Shown here piece after piece: positions 1 to 13,070 of a DNA stretch of 13,070 bases. Source of the DNA: a virus (lineage: Duplodnaviria > Heunggongvirae > Uroviricota > Caudoviricetes); IMG/VR virus record IMGVR_UViG_2541047681_000003. One strand, 5' to 3'. The notes beneath the pieces are model-generated. The model had not been told where the DNA came from. It saw nothing but the letters and a program-made list of their open reading frames with translations, and made no database searches. Numbering within the stretch: the first letter of the stretch is position 1; every line of letters begins with the position of its first letter. Position numbers and translations under genes: made by a program.

Positions 1-705
1 CTGCCGCTGTTTCCGGCGCATGAATGTTATGTGGAGCCGTTTTGTGGGGCAGCAGCGCTCTATTTTCTTAAGGTACCCGGCAAGATCGAAGTCATTAATG
101 ATATCAACGGTGAGCTGGTGAACCTGTATCGGGTGGTAAAACATCATCTGGAAGAATTTGTACGCCAGTTCAAATGGGCGCTGGTCAGCCGGCAGATCTA
201 CAAATGGCTGCAGATCACCCCGGAAGAAACACTGACGGATATCCAGCGTGCAGCACGGTTCTACTACCTTCAGAAGCAGGCGTTTGGGGGCAAGGTGGCG
301 GAGCACAGCTTTGGTACCTCCACCATATCCCCGCCACGCTTCAACCTGCTGCGTATTGAAGAAGAACTGTCAGCGGCACACCTGCGGCTTTCCAGAACGG
401 TCATAGAACACATGGACTGGCAACAGTGCATAGAACGATATGATCGCCCGCATACGTTGTTCTACTGTGACCCTCCATACTGGGGAACGGAAGGTTATGG
501 TGTGGAGTTCGGACTAGAAAATTATGATCATATGGCAGATTTAGCACGCAGGATCAAAGGGAAGATGATTATATCGGTGAACGATATCCCGGAAATGCGG
601 CAGGCATTCAACGGTCTAAATATTCAGTCGGTTGATATCAGCTACAACCTCAAGATCACTGGCAAATCCAGTCGCAAGAAGGAACTCATTATCCTCAACT
701 TTTGA
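1..705 (+). CDS. DNA adenine methyltransferase, Dam-like; 5'-partial, reading frame is open from base 1
   Basis: Frame is open upstream of the GTG at 31 back to base 1. Translation has CYVEPFCGAAA (compare E. coli Dam motif I, LVEPFVGAG as I recall it) and FYCDPPYWG (DPPY motif IV of N6-adenine methyltransferases). Stop codon at 703-705. Confidence 0.8.
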   Translation: MPLFPAHECYVEPFCGAAALYFLKVPGKIEVINDINGELVNLYRVVKHHLEEFVRQFKWALVSRQIYKWLQITPEETLTDIQRAARFYYLQKQAFGGKVAEHSFGTSTISPPRFNLLRIEEELSAAHLRLSRTVIEHMDWQQCIERYDRPHTLFYCDPPYWGTEGYGVEFGLENYDHMADLARRIKGKMIISVNDIPEMRQAFNGLNIQSVDISYNLKITGKSSRKKELIILNF

Positions 706-1900
706 CCGAATAGTAAGACTTCATGCAGTGAATCAAGTACTGCATGAAGTCAAGGGCTGGTTTTGTGTACCAAAAATAAACAGTGATAGCGGTAATAATT
801 CCCATAACTAGAACACCACGTATAATCCAGAACGTACGTTTCTGCGTGTCTAGTCGCGCAGAAATACTGCTAAATACACCAGCCACGTCATCTTTAATGA
901 AGGAATATTCCTTATTAATCTGTTTTTCTTTGTATTCAATTTCTTCGCCTAAGGCCTTTATAGATTGCATCTGGTTCGAAAGTGCCAGCCAGATTAACGT
1001 TGCAGCAAAAATGCATCCCAGAAGAATTATTGTGTTTGTTATCCCTTGGCCTGACCATTTCGTAGCCACTTTGAATTGGGTAGCTACGATAACAGAGGCA
1101 ACAGGAATGCCAAGTATATGGTTCTGGATATCTGAAAACGCTTTGTGGATTTTACCCATTTCTTCGACTTTTGCAGCACGCAGTTGATCCATTACTTTGT
1201 CATAAGAGAATCCAGAAGAGTAGATACGATACCCTTTCAGAAACTTTTCATGCAGACGCTGAATATTGTCCAGTAAATAAGCGAATACTAGAGGTGAATC
1301 AATTCCATCACTAACTGCTTGAATACTTTCAATCAGAATATCTAGCTTCTGATCCTTATGGGTATCATCATTGAAACAAGCTATAAGGTTATCAAGATAC
1401 TCCCTTTGCAAATTTTGTACATTTTCTGCAGCGAAGTGCGGTAATAGCTTGATAACTTCTTTTTTCAGAAAAACTAACTGACAAGTTGAGTTATCAAAGT
1501 AGGCCGCGGCCTCTTTTAGCAGGTTAACGAACTCGAGAATCTTCCGGTAGTTGCTGATGAAAACGGGGATATCTTCATCATCATTACGAAATTTTGTTTC
1601 TAGGATGAAGTAATTAGCTGGCTCAAGGCACTGATGCTTTGGAGCATTTAGCAATTTTTCATGGGTGGAAAACACAAGTCCCAGTCCACTCCGTGGTGAC
1701 GTCACACGTAGGATGATCGTGTTACCTGGAGCGATAGTGCCTGTATCAATAGAAAGACCATATTCACGAGGATCATCAAGCAAAGTATCAACCAGATCAC
1801 AATCGGACTGATCTAAGAGCAACAGCGAACCGACACGAAACCCCTCTTGGAATTCCATACGACGATACAGAGCTGTCAGCATCTCAAATGAAATCGCCAC
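695..1900 (-). CDS. Membrane-anchored protein of unknown function (401 aa); second gene of the leftward repressor-A-B block
   Basis: GTG start at 1900..1898, 2 bp after the TAA of the upstream gene, with GAGG 7 nt upstream. C-terminal hydrophobic stretches GITNTIILLGCIFAATLIWLAL and FWIIRGVLVMGIITAITVYFWY look like TM helices. The N-terminal ~290 aa look soluble with no motif I recognise. Visibly AT-rich. Confidence 0.6.
   Translation of the reverse strand: MAISFEMLTALYRRMEFQEGFRVGSLLLLDQSDCDLVDTLLDDPREYGLSIDTGTIAPGNTIILRVTSPRSGLGLVFSTHEKLLNAPKHQCLEPANYFILETKFRNDDEDIPVFISNYRKILEFVNLLKEAAAYFDNSTCQLVFLKKEVIKLLPHFAAENVQNLQREYLDNLIACFNDDTHKDQKLDILIESIQAVSDGIDSPLVFAYLLDNIQRLHEKFLKGYRIYSSGFSYDKVMDQLRAAKVEEMGKIHKAFSDIQNHILGIPVASVIVATQFKVATKWSGQGITNTIILLGCIFAATLIWLALSNQMQSIKALGEEIEYKEKQINKEYSFIKDDVAGVFSSISARLDTQKRTFWIIRGVLVMGIITAITVYFWYTKPALDFMQYLIHCMKSYYSVKS
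717..751. repeat. Perfect palindrome, 13-bp arms GACTTCATGCAGT / ACTGCATGAAGTC around a 9-nt loop
   Basis: Read directly from the sequence. It sits 12 bp after the methylase stop and inside the last codons of the convergent minus-strand gene 695..1900. Confidence 0.7.
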
Positions 1901-1902
1901 GA

Positions 1903-2910
1903 TTAAACCTCAGTCATCCACATTTCCCTAAATTCTTCAGGTACATTACGTAGGGTGATAATATTTGTTTCCGGATCATAATCAATATAGCCTTCAGTTT
2001 TCCCTTCCCGGTCAAACTTAAGTTCCCAATATTTAGACTTGCCTTTAAAAGATACCAGAGCCCGAATGACTCGACCATCAGGAACGAAGCCATCCGATAA
2101 CTCCAACTCTTCAGCAGCAAGTTTACCAGATAACTCCTCGGGAGCCTGGGGCCAAATGGCATTAACAAGGGTTTCAAGACTAAGTGGTTCACCAGCCTTA
2201 CTTAGTGCATGTAAGTGTTCAAACGCACTCTTAAGAAATGCATCTTTTTCAGCGCCGTCAAGTCCTTTCTCTGCCGCAAATGCTTTTAAAACGTCACGTA
2301 ACTTTTCAGACTCTCGTTTGGCGATTAAGACATCATTACAGCCTAGGAACTGTTTAAAATAGTTTGAAACATTACCTTGCCCCTTAAGAAAACTGATATA
2401 GCGCTCTGCGCCACTTTCCCACGCGGTTAAGTCAATGCGCCCAGCCATACGCAGCTTAGCAATATCAAGATAGGTACTATCTTGGATGTTAAAATCATCT
2501 GTGACAGTGGACCCAATGGTAGCGCTTACAATAGCTATCAACAGGTGTTCATTGTGTCCTATCACGATATTTGCAAAAAGAACATAACCACCAGTAGCCA
2601 TGTTTTCTCGCTGAGAACGTTCCGTCAGGTGATGCATCATTCGGCAGGAACTTTGGTAGAAATCATCAACACCTTCGAGAAAGTCCCCAGCCATTCGTTC
2701 CATAGGATAGTTATCCGTATCGCCTTCAAAATAGCCATAACCTTTACCTGTGCGTCCTGCATATTTTGCACAAATATCGTTTATAAGGCGCTGAGAGGCT
2801 TCAGTAACTAGACCTTCTTCAGGACTCAATCTCTCAGAAGCGTCTCCATTTTGTTGTTTGTCTAAAATGTGAACTACAACGTGTTTAACTTCAATGGTCT
2901 GCTCAGACAT
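1903..2910 (-). CDS. NdpA/YejK-like nucleoid-associated protein homologue (335 aa)
   Basis: ATG at 2910 with AAGGTGG 6 nt upstream. Same length as E. coli YejK (335 aa). Segments GGYVLFA and LRMAGRIDLTAWESGAERYISFLKGQ resemble my recollection of YejK (GGFVLFC; IRMAARIDLTRWEGGEERYLAFIKGR). This is a by-eye match, not a database hit. Confidence 0.55.
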   Translation of the reverse strand: MSEQTIEVKHVVVHILDKQQNGDASERLSPEEGLVTEASQRLINDICAKYAGRTGKGYGYFEGDTDNYPMERMAGDFLEGVDDFYQSSCRMMHHLTERSQRENMATGGYVLFANIVIGHNEHLLIAIVSATIGSTVTDDFNIQDSTYLDIAKLRMAGRIDLTAWESGAERYISFLKGQGNVSNYFKQFLGCNDVLIAKRESEKLRDVLKAFAAEKGLDGAEKDAFLKSAFEHLHALSKAGEPLSLETLVNAIWPQAPEELSGKLAAEELELSDGFVPDGRVIRALVSFKGKSKYWELKFDREGKTEGYIDYDPETNIITLRNVPEEFREMWMTEV

Positions 2911-2980: not shown

Positions 2981-3388
2981 TTAACCCACATTTTTTAACC
3001 GCTCAATCGTTGCGGATAATTCCTTCAGTTGTTTTTCCATCTCAATCACACGCTGTTTTTCTTCAGCGCCTCGCATGAGATCTCGCCGAACCTCAGGATC
3101 TAACTGGTTTAGAAGTTCAAGCATTTTAAGGTCTGACGGGCTGAATTGATGTTGTGTTGGTACAGCAACAATTTCTTTAGATGGAATATGTTCTTTACCG
3201 GTAAGTAGCCAATCGATTGATACACCCAAATGGGTACTTAGCGCAACAAGAGCCTCTGCGTTTGGTTCTCTCTCTCCACGCAAATAGTTTTGAAGTGAGC
3301 GATATGGAATTTTTGATAAGTCAGATAATGCCTTTATTGTCATGCCATTAGCATCCATCACTTCACGCAATCTCTCTTTTGTACTCAT
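2981..3388 (-). CDS. XRE-family helix-turn-helix repressor; candidate prophage immunity repressor
   Basis: Start taken at the internal Met (MSTKERLREVMDANGMTIKALSDLSKIPYRSLQNYLRGE...), which gives a typical N-terminal XRE HTH. It is divergent from the early operon and is followed by a C-terminal coiled-coil-like region. The longer ORF-track N-terminus would cover the promoter region and has implausible composition. Confidence 0.75.
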   Translation of the reverse strand: MSTKERLREVMDANGMTIKALSDLSKIPYRSLQNYLRGEREPNAEALVALSTHLGVSIDWLLTGKEHIPSKEIVAVPTQHQFSPSDLKMLELLNQLDPEVRRDLMRGAEEKQRVIEMEKQLKELSATIERLKNVG

Positions 3389-3404
3389 TTGAACATATCT
3401 CAAT

Positions 3405-3432
3405 TTGACACACTCATTTGGGTGTGTACAAT
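3405..3432 (+). promoter_or_regulatory. Sigma70-like early promoter (-35 TTGACA, 16-bp spacer, -10 TACAAT) overlapped by inverted repeat ACACAC-N8-GTGTGT (3408..3427)
   Basis: Hexamers read directly from the sequence in the divergent repressor/ner intergenic region. The 6-bp-arm inverted repeat spans the -35 and spacer. Direct repeat CAATAGA x2 lies at 3429..3444. Confidence 0.55.
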
Positions 3433-3476
3433 AGACCCAATAGAGTACATCATAACCTAACAGGAACACGGTGCAT

Positions 3477-3701
3477 ATGAACAAACAACAAGTTCGGGCA
3501 CGGCTGGTTGAACGAGGCAGTAGCTTGCGCCAGTTCGCGCTTAACGCGGGCTATGAACCACGAACAGTCACCCAGGCAGTCAGTCGCTGGGCTGGTAAAA
3601 GTGAACTACCTCGCGGTCGTTTGACTTATCGGATTTTGCGAGATCTATCGGTTGCAATAGGTAAAGAAGTTACCCCCGGTATCCTTAAGGAGGCGTCATG
3701 A
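3477..3701 (+). CDS. ner: Ner-like DNA-binding protein (Mu Ner / Nlp family)
   Basis: ATG at 3477 with AGGAA upstream. SLRQFALNAGYEPRTVTQAVSRWAGKSE resembles Mu Ner LSALSRQFGYAPTTLANALERHWPKGE. First rightward gene next to the repressor, as in Mu. Confidence 0.7.
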   Translation: MNKQQVRARLVERGSSLRQFALNAGYEPRTVTQAVSRWAGKSELPRGRLTYRILRDLSVAIGKEVTPGILKEAS

Positions 3702-4016: not shown

Positions 4017-4928
4017 ATGGGACGCACCAAATCACCGGTTAGCACTGAACTGAACGTCGAGGTACCGCTGTCGGATGATCTCAATGTCAGTCTAAACGCC
4101 ATGACACAGCATCGCATGGAAATCATGCAACAGTTCGGCGATGGTCTGCCTTATGAGCGCGATCGTGTTGTCCATGAGGCACGCTTTTATATGGCACAGA
4201 GCGCTGAGGCCATGCTGGAGGCAGGTAAGCGGCTGATAATCCTTAAGGAAAATGAACCACACGGGGAGTTTATAAAGATTCTTGAAAGTGAGTTGGGGCT
4301 GGCATACCGGACATCTGTGAGAATGATGCAAGCATCGACAAAATACTTATCCCCGGCGCTGAAACCAAATGTGCCAACGTTGGCACATTTGGGAAAAGCC
4401 AAACTTTTCGAATTAATGACAGAAGACGACGAAGAGCTTGCCGAACTGGCCGACGGCGGCACAGTTGCCGGCCTGACGCTTGACGACGTTGATCGCATGT
4501 CAGTACGCGAACTTCGCCAGGCCCTGCGCGAAGCGCGCGAAACCAACGCAGCACAACAGCGCGTACTCGCCGATAAAAATGAAAAAATTGATTCTCTCTC
4601 TACCAGACTGGAAAAGAAATCCCGTATTCAGCTGCCTGAGCCTGATGAGGAGGTTAAGAAGCTGCGGGCGGAAGTGACAGCATTAGCGGTTGAGGCGGAA
4701 TCTGCTATCGCCGTCCGACTGTCCAGCGCTTTTGAGACACTGTGCGCATATTGTGCTGAAAACATGATTGATACTCCCAGAGACTTCATGGCAGGCCTGG
4801 TCTGTCAACTGGAAAGCACAGCGCGTAGCCTGCGCTCCACATTTGACCTGCCGGACGAGCCAACAGGCGATGTCGCGCCTTCATGGCTGACTGAGCCGAC
4901 GCCACAGATTAACGGGCTGGAGGCATAA
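4017..4928 (+). CDS. Hypothetical protein (303 aa), acidic with a coiled-coil-like centre
   Basis: Strong RBS AGGAG 7 nt upstream of the ATG. Same strand and coding compositional style as the early operon. No motif recognised. Confidence 0.6.
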   Translation: MGRTKSPVSTELNVEVPLSDDLNVSLNAMTQHRMEIMQQFGDGLPYERDRVVHEARFYMAQSAEAMLEAGKRLIILKENEPHGEFIKILESELGLAYRTSVRMMQASTKYLSPALKPNVPTLAHLGKAKLFELMTEDDEELAELADGGTVAGLTLDDVDRMSVRELRQALREARETNAAQQRVLADKNEKIDSLSTRLEKKSRIQLPEPDEEVKKLRAEVTALAVEAESAIAVRLSSAFETLCAYCAENMIDTPRDFMAGLVCQLESTARSLRSTFDLPDEPTGDVAPSWLTEPTPQINGLEA

Positions 4929-6711: not shown

Positions 6712-7878
6712 ATGCTGGTACTGAAGCAGCAACTGAAAGAGGCCCGTATTCCACAGGCGGTGGTGGCGAGAGCTGTCGATGTTTCTGAGGCCACGCTGGC
6801 CCAGATTGTGAATCATAACGCGTGGCCCCGCACCAGCCCCGGAGAAGTGCGCCGGCGTCTTGCGTCCTGGCTGGAAAGTCAGGGGATTGATACAACGAAG
6901 AGTTTTGATGCTGTACAGGGCGCGGCCACGCCCCGTACAGCGGGTACCACAGATAAAACGAGCCTCAGTGAGGAAGAGAATATGTTACTCAAAAAACAGG
7001 TGTTATTTCCAGCAACCAAAAAAGCGTTTGGTCTTTTCCGTGACCCGTTCGCCGACGAAGCCATGCAGGGTTCTGATGATGTGTTCACCACCCCGGACAT
7101 TCGCTACGTGCGTGAGGCGCTGTACCAGACAGCCCGTCATGGTGGGTTTATGGCCGTCATCGGTGAGTCCGGTGCGGGTAAATCCACGCTGCGCCGCGAC
7201 CTGACTGAACGTATCAACCGCGAGAATGCGCCGGTAATTGTTATCGAGCCATACATCATCGCTATGGAAGACAACGATGTGAAAGGGAAAACCCTGAAGG
7301 CAGCAGCTATTGCCGAAGCCATTATCAGTACCATCGCACCACTGGAAAGCATCAGACGCAGTCAGGACGCCCGCTTTCGCCAGTTGCATCGCGTCCTGAA
7401 AGACAGCAGCCAGGCGGGGTTCAGCCACGTTCTGGTGATTGAGGAGGCCCACAGTCTGCCCATTCCGACACTGAAACACCTCAAACGCTTTTTTGAGCTG
7501 GAGTCCGGTTTCAAAAAACTGCTGTCCATCGTGCTGATTGGCCAGCCGGAACTGGCGACAAAACTGTCTGAACGCAATATGGAAGTCCGTGAAGTCGTTC
7601 AGCGCTGTGAGGTGGTCGAACTTCTGCCTCTGGACAATAACCTTGAAGAGTTTCTGACGTTCAAACTGCAACGGGCCGGTAAACAACTGACGGACATTAT
7701 GGACGCCAGCGCAGTGGATGCCATACGTGCCCGCCTGAGCAATCCGGGAAGTCATCGTAAAAATATGGTCAGCCTGCTGTATCCGCTGGCCGTCAGTAAC
7801 CTGGTAATAGCCGCCATGAATCTGGCCGCTGAAATCGGGGTTCCACAGGTCAACGCTGACGTTGTCAAAGGGGTTTAA
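6712..7878 (+). CDS. Transposition ATPase, AAA+ (MuB / TniB / TnsC-like)
   Basis: Start at the internal ATG 6712 with AGGAGGG RBS just after the transposase stop. Walker A GESGAGKST, Walker B-like VLVIEEAH, N-terminal HTH-like segment. Confidence 0.8.
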   Translation: MLVLKQQLKEARIPQAVVARAVDVSEATLAQIVNHNAWPRTSPGEVRRRLASWLESQGIDTTKSFDAVQGAATPRTAGTTDKTSLSEEENMLLKKQVLFPATKKAFGLFRDPFADEAMQGSDDVFTTPDIRYVREALYQTARHGGFMAVIGESGAGKSTLRRDLTERINRENAPVIVIEPYIIAMEDNDVKGKTLKAAAIAEAIISTIAPLESIRRSQDARFRQLHRVLKDSSQAGFSHVLVIEEAHSLPIPTLKHLKRFFELESGFKKLLSIVLIGQPELATKLSERNMEVREVVQRCEVVELLPLDNNLEEFLTFKLQRAGKQLTDIMDASAVDAIRARLSNPGSHRKNMVSLLYPLAVSNLVIAAMNLAAEIGVPQVNADVVKGV

Positions 7879-10909: not shown

Positions 10910-11359
10910 ATGCAGAAAAAACGCCTGATACAGCTTATCCATATTGCCCGTAATGAACTGGGTATGGATGAAGACACCTACCGCCAGATGTTACAGGGGC
11001 TGACCGGTAAAGCCTCAACCAAAGGAATGGATACCACACAACTAAACTGCGTGCTGGAATCCATGAAAAAGAAAGGCTTTCGCGTTAAACCAGCCAGAAA
11101 AGCCAGCTCCGGTTTACCGCTGGATAACCATCCGCAGTCCAGGAAAATTCGTGCGCTATGGCTTGAAATGGCTGCTGCCGGCATTGTTCGTGACCGTTCA
11201 GAAAATGCATTAGCGCGGTGGATCAAGCGGGAAACGGGCATCAGCGCCCTGCGCTGGCTCAATACTGAACAGGCAAGCAGTGTTATTGAGAAACTGAAGA
11301 AGTGGCAGCACAGAGCTGCGGGAGTAAAACATGAGCGACCTGAATCAGTTTCGAAGTAA
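10910..11359 (+). CDS. gemA: GemA-like protein (Mu gp16 family)
   Basis: AGGAG RBS. N-terminus KKRLIQLIHIARNELGMDEDTYRQML resembles Mu GemA (KAQLIAKIHIAKKQLNMDDDTYRAML as I recall it). Lies immediately upstream of the Mor-like gene, as in Mu. Confidence 0.65.
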   Translation: MQKKRLIQLIHIARNELGMDEDTYRQMLQGLTGKASTKGMDTTQLNCVLESMKKKGFRVKPARKASSGLPLDNHPQSRKIRALWLEMAAAGIVRDRSENALARWIKRETGISALRWLNTEQASSVIEKLKKWQHRAAGVKHERPESVSK

Positions 11360-11729
11360 AGGGCCGGAACTCCTGGTGGAGCTGGCACAGCATACCTCTG
11401 AGACCGTTCGCGAGATTATTGATATTGAGCCCGCAATTGCCGACCAGATTGGTCAGGCCGTCGCGAACCGAATGATGCAGGTCTGGGGCGGGCAAAACGT
11501 TTATTTCCCGATGGGCATGGTATGGAAGGTCAGTCAGCGCGACCGGGAAATCTTCAGGGAGTTTAACGGACGCAACCACCACGAACTGGCCCGCAAGTTT
11601 GGTGTTTCGCTTCAGTGGGTCTACAGCGTGGTTAAGCGGGTCAGAAAAGAAGAACTGGATCGGATGCAGGGCAGGTTGTTTGATGAAGATCTGCCAGAGG
11701 AGACGAAAGACGTTAACAAATCCAGATAA
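11331..11729 (+). CDS. mor: Mor-like transcriptional activator (Mor/C family)
   Basis: GGGAG RBS. C-terminal HTH region REFNGRNHHELARKFGVSLQWVYSVVKRVR resembles Mu Mor (NDFNGRNVSELTTRYGVTFNTVYKAIRRMR as I recall it). Last gene before the terminator. Confidence 0.7.
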   Translation: MSDLNQFRSKGPELLVELAQHTSETVREIIDIEPAIADQIGQAVANRMMQVWGGQNVYFPMGMVWKVSQRDREIFREFNGRNHHELARKFGVSLQWVYSVVKRVRKEELDRMQGRLFDEDLPEETKDVNKSR

Positions 11730-11771
11730 TTCCTGCTTGTTAAAGTCCTTTCAAAAATCTCCTTATTGTAT

Positions 11772-11805
11772 AAAAGCACGGTAGACCCCTTACCGTGCTT
11801 TTTTT
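11772..11805 (+). terminator. Rho-independent terminator ending the early operon
   Basis: Stem GCACGGTA / TACCGTGC with 7-nt loop GACCCCT, followed by seven T residues, preceded by AAAA. Located 43 bp after the mor stop. Confidence 0.8.
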
Positions 11806-11843
11806 ATGCTCTCTCTTTAGTATTCAGGATGCAGGGAGAAAAT

Positions 11844-12476
11844 ATGTTTGACGTTTCGTTGTTAAATCTGCCATGGGCAACACTGGTGACCCTGACCAGT
11901 GGCTATATTGGGTATTTTATTGCGAATGTGGGACTGAAGGATCACCACAAGCCCATTGAGGTGACTTTTTCTTCGCTGATTTTTGGCCTGACAGCAATGA
12001 TGGCTTACCAGGCTGTTATGTGGGCAGGTCTGAATGCCTGGCTGGCAACACCACCAGCACTTCTGTGTGCCGTTACATGCGGTGCGTGGTGGCGCAGGTA
12101 CGGTCGCAAATGGATGTACAGATTACTGTGGAATAATGATGTTTCATGGTCTGACGATACCAGCTCAGCATGGCAGGCAATGTTTGATCAAACAGGCTTC
12201 AGCGTTACCGAGGTCAGAGTGATTCTTCGCGATGGTTCCGGTATGATGTCACGGCTGCCAGGGAACTTTGAAGAGTGGCCTAACGGTCCGTTTACCCTGG
12301 GGAATAAAGGCGATATGGTTCTTTACGTCACGCACAGCAGCCCTTCAGGCAGTAACGAATGGGAAGAGTATAAAGGCGTGGTTGATAAGTACTGGGGAGC
12401 TCTGGCAACCTATATTCCAGCAGATCAGATTGCCAGAGTGGAGATCAGGCGCGTTCGTGCAACGAACGATGAATGA
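11844..12476 (+). CDS. Membrane protein of unknown function (210 aa): about three N-terminal TM helices plus a soluble C-terminal domain
   Basis: ATG at 11844 with GGGAG RBS. The ORF-track start at 11766 would read through the terminator hairpin. Hydrophobic stretches WATLVTLTSGYIGYFIANVGL, SSLIFGLTAMMAYQAVMWAGL and PALLCAVTCGAWW. Confidence 0.55.
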   Translation: MFDVSLLNLPWATLVTLTSGYIGYFIANVGLKDHHKPIEVTFSSLIFGLTAMMAYQAVMWAGLNAWLATPPALLCAVTCGAWWRRYGRKWMYRLLWNNDVSWSDDTSSAWQAMFDQTGFSVTEVRVILRDGSGMMSRLPGNFEEWPNGPFTLGNKGDMVLYVTHSSPSGSNEWEEYKGVVDKYWGALATYIPADQIARVEIRRVRATNDE

Positions 12477-12720
12477 TGTTTATTTTTTCCCTGGGGCAGG
12501 GGCTGCCGGCATAGTGGTTTTATTGGCAGAGGAAGACGATTCTCCTTTTCTACCGGAATCGCGCTCGAACGTCACGATGTGCTTGCTTTTGGGCTTTTCT
12601 GAGTAATCCAGGCTATCATGCTTATTGTTTTGAGTAGTCATTGGAATCATCCTTTTTGTTGCGGGTCATGTTTCAGCAAACTCGATTCTAAGTTGCCAGG
12701 AAGGATGATTTCAATGCCCG

Positions 12721-12837
12721 ACTTATCTATCGTATAGCGGAAAAGAATTTCAGTTCTGTTCACCAGAACCCATGTTAACCCACTCCAATTCGTTATTTAT
12801 CTCACGGATCCCCCTTCATTTATCTCATGTCTGATCA
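12721..12837. repeat. Terminal non-coding region with direct repeats ATTTATCTCA (12795..12804 and 12818..12827) and a degenerate copy ACTTATCTAT (12721..12730); candidate transposase-binding sites at the element's right end
   Basis: Repeats read directly from the sequence, two perfect copies 23 bp apart. Element-side sequence ends ...TCTGATCA (CA at 12836..12837) next to host kefC-derived sequence. No ORF on either strand between 12607 and 12837. Confidence 0.5.
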
Positions 12838-13070
12838 CTTTGTGGATCGAGTTCGAGGCCGATAATAAACAGCATCAGCACCACGCCAATCTCGGCAAAG
12901 TGCAGAATAGATTCGGCATCGGTCACCAGTCGCAGCCCCCACGGGCCAATAATGCAGCCGGCGATCAGGTAGCCAAGAACCGATCCCAGACCGAGACGTA
13001 CCGCAATGGGAACAATCAGCGCCGCCGAACCGAGATAAATCAGCGCCTGAATAAGCGTATGGCTATCCAT
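12838..13070 (-). pseudogene. kefC: kefC 5' fragment: first ~78 codons of the glutathione-regulated K+ efflux gene, then unrelated sequence and a stop
   Basis: Translation [77 protein letters not shown] matches the E. coli KefC N-terminus as I recall it. The reading then becomes SDQT-stop instead of RLWKL.... Junction uncertainty is about 3 bp. Confidence 0.75.

Follow-up and report, generated by a model that had tools for sequence, protein, structure and literature searches.

A two-gene accessory cassette encoding a predicted three-helix membrane protein and a proline-tailed small protein at the right end of an E. coli Mu-like prophage

The right end of a Mu-like prophage and its cargo

The window, by which we mean the whole 13,070-nucleotide stretch of DNA analysed here, contains the right-hand 12.8 kb of an E. 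coli Mu-like transposable prophage that follows the BcepMu gene order and is inserted in a kefC-like gene (kef). Besides a repressor gene, it carries a rightward early operon encoding a 589-aa transposase, an ExeA/MuB-like ATPase, Gam, GemA, and Mor; the late genes (holin, SLT, terminase) face leftward and lie outside the window. The prophage transposase shares 98.6% identity with its counterpart in Escherichia phage PhiKM (classified Bcepmuvirus) and 68.5% with its BcepMu counterpart. When four independent insertions are aligned, the right end of the element falls at 12837 (...TGATCA), beyond which the four diverge into different host genes, namely, kef, fliC, fadM, and rstB; these differing flanks fix the element end and demonstrate random transposition. 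The terminal ~40–44 bp are kept in PhiKM, as seen by blastn. Between mor and this end lie two genes of an accessory cassette, the larger of which stops 360 bp before the right end.

2981–3484, minus strand: repressor gene
11331–11729: mor (Pfam Mor, 1.1e-43)
11687–12797: accessory cassette of 1.1 kb, delimited as an indel relative to PhiKM
11834–11839, plus strand: large-gene Shine-Dalgarno sequence (GGGAGA), 5 nt ahead of the ATG, by direct reading
11844–12476, plus strand: large coding sequence, 210 aa, WP_000460690.1 (ATG at 11844, TGA at 12474–12476)
12480–12641, minus strand: small coding sequence, 53 aa (MTTQNNKHDSLDYSEKPKSKHIVTFERDSGRKGESSSSANKTTMPAAPAPGKK), WP_001571575.1, PHROG 15726; convergent with the large gene, tail-to-tail, across a 3-nt gap
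12793–12837: Mu-type right end, two 12-bp repeats plus terminal ...TGATCA, from the four-insertion alignment
12793–12804 and 12816–12827: the right-end repeats, TTATTTATCTCA and TCATTTATCTCA, respectively

Both coding sequences are annotated simply as "hypothetical protein," the small one in RefSeq. An earlier note, made from the letters of this DNA alone, had singled out the large gene as moron-like cargo with its own ribosome-binding site, situated between the early terminator and the element end. The open reading frame is indeed real and preceded by a Shine-Dalgarno sequence, with GGAGG or AGGAG at an equal distance in homologues, and it is bracketed by a terminator hairpin at 11772–11802 and the element end as described. 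What did not stand is the portrayal of a stand-alone, single-gene cargo, given the conserved 53-aa gene that ends 3 nt beyond its stop codon on the other strand and co-occurs with it across phyla.

The moron-like character is borne out by comparison with related phages. When the window is aligned with PhiKM by blastn, homology at 96.9% breaks off at 11686, within the 3' end of mor, and picks up again at 12798, so that PhiKM is without the whole cassette and the boundaries are clean. The absence of the cassette from a phage with a 98.6% identical transposase marks it as moron-type cargo. Furthermore, BcepMu has nothing between Mor and the element end, and phage KP12 has a different, 109-aa open reading frame in the same slot. 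In enterobacterial Mu-like relatives whose transposases are only ~50% identical, the pair is still found after Mor, and in two unrelated, HK97-like prophages it is located between the Phage_connect_1 (head-tail connector) and Phage_HCP (head-closure) genes, the large gene being co-oriented with the late operon. Presence and absence between near-identical phages is thus combined with unrelated positions in other phages.

Outside such prophages, on alphaproteobacterial islands, the cassette stands beside a serine recombinase (resolvase) in Bradyrhizobium and Afipia, and adjoins a DUF4411/Peptidase_M78 pair in Allosphingosinicella. The resolvase and a 156–183-aa gene that flank the Bradyrhizobium and Afipia cassettes were considered as core members and rejected as lineage-specific. 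Among 5426 complete E. coli genomes, 118–133 carry the cassette, on chromosomes only; carriers include probiotic and asymptomatic-bacteriuria strains (M-17 and ABU 83972). A plasmid search returned no enterobacterial plasmid copies, and a plasmid-stability context was dropped on that account; earlier plasmid matches did not recur with the query restricted to the cassette. Taken across these loci, the sequence comparisons indicate that the cassette is transferred in one piece among unrelated phages, genomic islands, and a small plasmid.

Two proteins and a recurrent partnership

The AlphaFold2 model of the 210-aa protein (pLDDT 81, pTM 0.61) comprises three hydrophobic helices (residues 11–27, 37–60, and 65–97) and a beta-rich C-terminal domain (residues 119–205), in good agreement with the approximately three N-terminal transmembrane (TM) helices and soluble C-terminal domain that the earlier note had described. 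The linker that follows TM3 is modelled with low confidence and contains an SWSDD motif with invariant S101 and D104. Near the N-terminus, a very conserved NLPW motif is predicted to lie at the periplasmic face. Averaged over 25 homologues, the number of lysines and arginines is 0.4 at the N-terminus, 1.9 in loop 1, 0.1 in loop 2, and 5.4 after TM3, a distribution that points to an N-out/C-in topology with the soluble domain in the cytoplasm. Only about 10 + 5 residues are predicted to be periplasmic, the rest being membrane or cytoplasm; by inference, this topology would suit a cytoplasm-sensing membrane effector better than a periplasm-facing blocker of DNA entry. The predicted soluble domain has a short N-terminal helix and five strongly bent strands and can be superimposed on Sm, as is characteristic of Sm/LSm-like folds. 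Sm and Hfq folds are usually RNA-binding. On the strength of these models, the gene encodes an inner-membrane protein in which three TM helices precede a small, Sm-like beta-barrel on the cytoplasmic side.

The family affiliation of this protein is less direct. It matches full-length the function-unassigned phage family PHROG 12870 (E 7.6e-134, residues 1–210 against profile positions 1–210 of 210), yields no Pfam match even at E ≤ 10, no NCBIfam match, and no PADLOC match, and gives nothing significant in a sequence-profile search of the PDB. Fifteen of 25 homologues match Pfam DUF6338 (PF19865) below threshold (best E 8.5e-6), in a region (residues 43–136 against profile positions 54–144) that runs from TM2 and TM3 through the linker into the beginning of the barrel. 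For the best homologues, the scores are 23.9, 25.4, and 25.9 bits; membership of the window protein in DUF6338 is rejected, as the gathering threshold of 26.5 bits is not reached. DUF6338 proteins are bacterial and archaeal membrane proteins of ~170–230 aa, and the window protein shares their length and architecture. Some database entries of homologues are named "DUF6338 family protein." In sum, the profile matches describe a family that is a divergent sister branch of the uncharacterised DUF6338. The earlier note recognised no family, which holds for Pfam, NCBIfam, and PADLOC and is superseded by PHROG 12870 and by homologues close to the DUF6338 cut-off; of the HMM and structure searches it proposed, the former led to PHROG 12870, with DUF6338 only sub-threshold, and the latter to the Sm/LSm-like fold.

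An exhaustive profile search of a library of 1.84 billion proteins recovers 523 family clusters at 50% identity, which places the gene far beyond chance. Among the 150 clusters listed of these 523, most are about 200–215 aa in length, and the longer homologues inspected have variable tails only, with no informative domain fusions. Hosts of homologues include Enterobacterales, Bradyrhizobium, Afipia, Sphingomonas, Devosia, Ochrobactrum, a Rhodobacteraceae plasmid, and one Synechococcus phage. Literature searches on PF19865 and on BcepMu-like E. coli prophages returned nothing on the large gene. Membership among the holins was considered and rejected, as Foldseek matches in a viral library involve the TM bundle only (TM-score ~0.3, E at least 0.01).

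The 53-aa protein is hydrophilic, ends in a Pro/Lys tail (...PAAPAPGKK), and is predicted to be disordered, AlphaFold assigning it no secondary structure (pTM 0.14). It matches PHROG 15726 over its full length (E 9.9e-42, residues 1–53 of 53), a family matched by 7 of 25 partner proteins, and has no PADLOC match; a database search with a small-protein profile returned "hypothetical proteins" only. In informative pairs, dN/dS of the small open reading frame is 0.14–0.25, which indicates purifying selection.

More than 100 loci were collected from genomes, viral contigs, and metagenomes, and pairing was scored on 30 non-redundant loci. A strict partner rule is satisfied by 20 of the 30, against a background of 0.0018 per equivalent window, and a partner is present in ~27 when homology is used. 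Wherever the flanking DNA sufficed, nearly all non-redundant loci have as partner a hydrophilic, convergent open reading frame of 38–65 aa, separated from the large gene by a stop-to-stop distance of −20 to +43 nt at loci other than the window, and typically with [NS][YFH]xPxT repeats and a ...PPxPKK tail; tails such as ...PPPSPKKK and ...PPPPKK are found. Several enterobacterial versions are acidic with weak proline tails. Hidden Markov models built from gammaproteobacterial or alphaproteobacterial small proteins match, among 9385 open reading frames, only those in the partner position. The reciprocal search from the small protein confirms the pairing: two new matches, in Ochrobactrum and Devosia, each have as their convergent neighbour a homologue of 207 or 210 aa that is 43–44% identical to the window protein.

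Variation among the loci is informative in its own right. Tandem small open reading frames occur, with four to five following the homologue on the Rhodobacteraceae plasmid and ending in ...PPPPKK, ...PPPPKR, or ...PPPPKPKR, and two copies at a Pseudorhizobium locus. At three Bradyrhizobium loci, one of them a metagenome-assembled genome, the large gene is frameshifted at different sites and the small gene is intact, as would be expected if the large protein were the costly component. At three further loci (L016, L050, and L055) the large gene is intact and no recognisable partner was found.

A further parallel comes from Pseudomonas stutzeri, where three abundant, unannotated proline-rich proteins of 36–47 aa (SEP1, SEP5, and SEP2) are encoded beside the DUF6338 gene Pstu14405_RS12030 (PMC10433244). 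They were seen at full length by digest-free mass spectrometry with 44–114 PSMs and ~100% coverage (Anal Chem 2023, PMC10433244), and their C-termini read ...TAPPPPKK, ...APPPPPKRDSK, and ...PPPPPKKGG. The authors judged them species-specific and unconserved beyond P. stutzeri, found that they accumulate harmlessly in the cytosolic fraction, and raised an antimicrobial role as well as the occurrence of DUF6338 in biosynthetic clusters (PMC10433244). The locus resembles the cassette in combining a DUF6338-type gene with short, basic, proline-rich open reading frames that share the tail motif, the two large proteins being likened by their relation to DUF6338. It differs in that its small genes form three tandem copies, which are reported to share the strand of the DUF6338 gene, whereas the window has a single, convergent one. 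The gamma- and alphaproteobacterial models detect neither each other nor the P. stutzeri proteins. What the three groups have in common is position, size, composition, and the C-terminal motif, and by this likeness the "species-specific" P. stutzeri micro-proteins take their place in a recurrent partnership spanning gamma- and alphaproteobacteria. We therefore claim a conserved partnership, as judged from sequence and gene position, a claim that does not extend to common ancestry of all partners.

Expression signals of the cassette

The cassette is provided with a set of candidate regulatory elements, distributed around both genes.

11772–11802, plus strand: intrinsic terminator, a 13-pair hairpin followed by T7, directly after mor (terminator scan)
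11782–11810, plus strand: putative weak sigma-70 promoter inside the terminator (−35 TAGACC in the loop, 17-nt spacer, −10 TATGCT)
12639–12654, minus strand: 3' arm of a fold-back (anti-Shine-Dalgarno) structure, covering the small-gene Shine-Dalgarno sequence AAGGA (12650–12654) and start codon (12641–12639)
12685–12714, minus strand: sigma-70 promoter of the small gene (TTGAAA, 18-nt spacer, TAGAAT; 10 of 12 consensus positions; promoter scan)
12701–12716, minus strand: 5' arm of the fold-back, overlapping the −35 hexamer and spacer of the small-gene promoter
12752–12770, minus strand: terminator-like hairpin between the element end and the small-gene promoter (terminator scan)

The terminator after mor insulates the cassette from the early (Mor) operon and, with a run of A before the hairpin and a run of T after it, looks bidirectional. 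Other enterobacterial elements have a hairpin with a different stem at the equivalent place, 40–51 nt before the ATG, followed by TTTTTTTATTCT. The putative promoter of the large gene is embedded in this terminator. It agrees with consensus at 8 of 12 positions, below the threshold of the scan tool, and its −35/−10 register (TAGACC or TGGATA, 17 nt, TATTCT) recurs in lineages with different terminator stems, from which we infer that the large gene may be transcribed from within the terminator. The small-gene promoter keeps its hexamers and spacing in Citrobacter, Salmonella, Serratia, Symbiopectobacterium, and other lineages. As regards the independent promoter characteristic of a moron, the cassette thus offers a clear terminator, a well-matched promoter for the small gene, and, for the large gene, a candidate that overlaps the terminator. 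This pattern suggests an asymmetry in which the small gene has a strong, conserved promoter and the large gene at best a weak one. Comparison of the region upstream of the large gene with the late (holin) promoter region for a common Mor-binding motif gave only a short TTTCAAA at differing spacing.

Downstream, the terminator scan finds none between the two convergent genes, which together with the small stop-to-stop distances means that their transcripts must overlap. Upstream of the small gene, the two arms of the fold-back are complementary at 15 of 16 bases, with a duplex energy of −18.7 kcal/mol (z −6.2), and the pairing covaries in seven of eight lineages (z between −3.4 and −9.4). As the 5' arm overlaps the promoter, only transcripts entering from beyond that promoter contain it. 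The fold-back would in this way guard the small gene against read-in from the interrupted host gene, and the hairpin at 12752–12770 may likewise insulate the cassette against read-in from the disrupted host gene.

Possible functions and known parallels

The reading we favour, with a probability of roughly 0.4, is that the cassette encodes a membrane effector restrained by a small partner and acting in the manner of a toxin-antitoxin or abortive-infection system. The large protein would be the effector, its cytoplasmic barrel sensing or binding a cytoplasmic ligand and its self-association perturbing the inner membrane. The small protein, abundantly made, would keep it off by binding of its proline tail to the barrel, by convergent antisense transcription running over the large gene, or by both; antisense control cannot be universal, as the P. 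stutzeri micro-proteins are on the same strand as the DUF6338 gene. Were a short-lived partner lost, for instance because an infecting phage halts host gene expression, the effector would be set free, and the prophage would benefit from the resulting toxin-antitoxin-like, abortive-infection, or exclusion phenotype. Several observations speak against such an effector. The convergent layout is atypical for protein toxin-antitoxin pairs, and it is not evident why a harmless antitoxin should need a fold-back that prevents its translation from read-in transcripts. Three loci have no recognisable partner, the evidence from frameshifts comes from three loci, and neither protein has a PADLOC match.

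A wider proposal, which we hold to be unlikely though still of some weight, is that DUF6338-type proteins and proline-tailed micro-proteins constitute a widespread, unrecognised two-component membrane system. Sm-like barrels would form a ring pore or a membrane-disrupting oligomer, plugged or kept apart by the disordered Pro/Lys tails of micro-proteins made constitutively, and loss of the micro-protein upon phage takeover would fire the effector. Such a system would amount to a new class of abortive-infection or addiction module gated by a micro-protein. The carriers that bear on this proposal are phages, islands, and plasmids of Proteobacteria, with a homologue of the large protein also in one cyanophage.

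Classical superinfection exclusion, one of the functions suggested in the earlier note, whereby a lysogen-expressed membrane protein would block phage DNA entry at the inner membrane with the small protein as regulator or accessory, appears distinctly improbable. Many prophage exclusion proteins are small inner-membrane proteins, such as P22 SieA, T4 Imm, and HK97 gp15, and the window protein would be at home among them as an inner-membrane protein with a very conserved NLPW at its periplasmic face, encoded at a terminal moron position of a temperate phage and insulated from the early operon. Yet only ~15 residues are predicted to be periplasmic and the conserved soluble domain is cytoplasmic; exclusion proteins are not known to have an obligate small partner, whereas the partner here is conserved across phyla; and the cassette is also found outside prophages, beside resolvases and on a plasmid.

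Ranked below exclusion, and in our estimation very doubtful, is a role for the pair in the cycle of the phage itself, be it lysis timing, membrane remodelling, or the anchoring of nucleic acid via an Sm-like ring. Such a role would account for a position right after mor that is conserved in enterobacterial Mu-like prophages with transposases only ~50% identical, for the co-orientation of the large gene with the late operon in HK97-like prophages, and for a weak, TM-only Foldseek similarity to class I/III holins, and it would draw on the RNA binding usual for Sm/Hfq folds. On the other side, the cassette is dispensable, being absent from PhiKM, KP12, and BcepMu; it is found outside phages and is separated from the early operon by a terminator; the prophage is already equipped with a holin, an SLT endolysin, and spanin-like genes; and the holin matches remain at the low scores given above.

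The least probable of the readings makes the small proline-rich proteins the active product and the membrane protein their anchor, exporter, or immunity factor, with the C-terminal tail as recognition tag. Insect proline-rich antimicrobial peptides are loosely resembled by the Y-x-P-x-T repeats and basic proline-rich tail, and tandem arrays in which the tail is conserved and the bodies vary (4–5 on the Rhodobacteraceae plasmid, 2 in Pseudorhizobium, 3 in P. stutzeri) would fit. Although the P. stutzeri proteins are abundant and an antimicrobial role has been raised for them (PMC10433244), the small proteins have no signal or leader peptide, those of P. stutzeri accumulate harmlessly in the cytosolic fraction, several enterobacterial versions are acidic with weak proline tails, the small gene is kept beside a frameshifted membrane gene, which would be dangerous were the membrane protein an immunity factor, and a three-TM protein is not a known exporter type.

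Should the pair prove to be an effector–inhibitor module, it would represent a new architecture of prophage defence or addiction, composed of three TM helices, an Sm-like barrel, and a proline-tailed micro-protein, and would provide a first functional handle on DUF6338. In addition, the conserved promoter, the terminator-embedded candidate promoter, and the covarying fold-back offer a compact example of how Mu-like phages that insert at random can shield their cargo from transcription of the host.

Among known systems, the type I toxin-antitoxin loci txpA/RatA and bsrG/SR4 of B. subtilis prophages are convergent and overlap at their 3' ends, with the stronger promoter on the "anti" side, and their toxin is a hydrophobic peptide of less than 60 aa and their antitoxin a non-coding RNA. 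The cassette is likewise prophage-borne and convergent, with transcripts whose 3' ends must overlap and the stronger predicted promoter on the "anti" side. Membership in type I is rejected, in view of a 210-aa product with a soluble domain and an opposite gene that is protein-coding under purifying selection (dN/dS as given above), and membership in type II is rejected because the genes are convergent and not operonic. In MscS-type channels, too, three TM helices precede a beta domain, one that SCOP classes as Sm-like. The window protein resembles them in the order of elements, the N-out/C-in topology, and an Ala/Gly-rich TM3; membership in the MscS family is rejected, there being no MscS among the structural matches listed.

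Fold-back inhibition of translation is a feature of the IS10 and IS50 transposases. Like these, the small gene has a sequence upstream of its own promoter that is complementary to the Shine-Dalgarno sequence and AUG and enters only read-in transcripts, in which it would sequester the ribosome-binding site. Here the structure belongs to a cargo micro-protein gene at the end of a phage and not to a transposase, and its proposed function would be of use to an element whose insertions fall randomly within host genes.

The closest mechanistic analogy to the reading we favour, a membrane effector restrained by a small partner, may be found among the S-2TMbeta effectors of nucleotide-signalling defence systems, which combine TM helices with a cytoplasmic beta-barrel whose ligand state controls oligomerisation and membrane disruption (PMC12657218). 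Of these, Cap15 of CBASS is switched on by its ligand, and OptE of Panoptes is held off by a ligand that is made constitutively (PMC12657218). The window protein shares with them the fusion of N-terminal TM helices to a small cytoplasmic beta-barrel. Membership is rejected, since it has three TM helices and not two, has no PADLOC match, and has no Cap15 among the structural matches listed; nor was a nucleotide cyclase gene (CD-NTase/mCpol) found in the neighbourhoods examined. By analogy, the TM-plus-barrel effectors Cap15 and OptE would nonetheless provide a precedent for the logic proposed here.

Neighbouring cargo and the record of a related phage

The prophage possesses a second cargo slot (window 695..2910, minus strand), bounded by the Dam methylase and the repressor, whose two genes are listed here together with the methyltransferase gene at the left edge.

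Within 695..2910, minus strand: membrane protein of 401 aa; PADLOC matches it weakly to KwaA of Kiwa (8.1e-5)
Within 695..2910, minus strand: 335-aa protein of the NA37 nucleoid-associated family (Pfam, 1e-80)
31..705, plus strand: Dam-like adenine methyltransferase, type II or orphan (PADLOC MTase_II, 9.4e-101)

The 401-aa and 335-aa genes may constitute a Kiwa-like defence pair, and the same slot between methylase and repressor is occupied by different genes in the related phage PhiKM and in KP12. The methyltransferase gene adjoins the late-promoter region and extends past the left edge of the window.

PhiKM itself was deposited as a "partial genome" (PQ738613), in which the phage right end is followed by host-like DNA of approximately 350 bp, where the annotation gives an Fe2+ ABC permease, and then by tail-fibre genes (region of interest 14100..14480). 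The record looks like a permuted assembly that runs through packaged host flanks.

The large gene and its small partner in other bacteria

Loci L019 (5263..5922 and 6789..7313), L021, and L004 show the setting of the cassette in Bradyrhizobium and Afipia: a serine recombinase with Resolvase and HTH_7 domains lies on its flank, and an ORF of 156-183 aa, for which a Pfam search returned no match, directly adjoins the small gene on its upstream side. These surroundings are lineage-specific. At the Bradyrhizobium loci L022, L024, and L025, a frameshift interrupts the large gene, each time at a different position, and leaves an intact small partner ORF beside it; on Bradyrhizobium plasmids the large gene persists only as a 35-residue remnant.

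A Rhodobacteraceae plasmid (CP081163; locus L102) carries four to five small ORFs in tandem on the minus strand (4143..4917), downstream of a distant homologue of the large protein (26% identical) and with the first of them overlapping the 3′ end of that homologue's gene. Their C-termini read PPPPKK, PPPPKR, or PPPPKPKR. Small partner proteins such as those at L102 4143..4256 and at locus L023 (6597..6713) bear motifs including GRVYIPD...PPPPPPHRD and SYxPRTT, which loosely resemble the insect proline-rich antimicrobial peptides apidaecin, drosocin, and pyrrhocoricin; this likeness may be purely compositional.

The interrupted host gene and a predicted fold-back at the small gene

At its right end, the prophage disrupts a host K+-efflux gene after approximately 77 codons (window 12825..13070, minus strand; junction at 12837), the N-terminus of which we take to be that of kefC. 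Because the prophage interrupts this gene, transcription from the host promoter enters the prophage end and runs the same way as that of the small gene. In an inverted repeat (12639..12716, minus strand), whose arms covary, the −35 element and spacer of the promoter that serves the small gene pair with that gene's Shine-Dalgarno sequence and AUG. The repeat resembles fold-back inhibition of the IS10 type, which curbs the translation of read-in transcripts.
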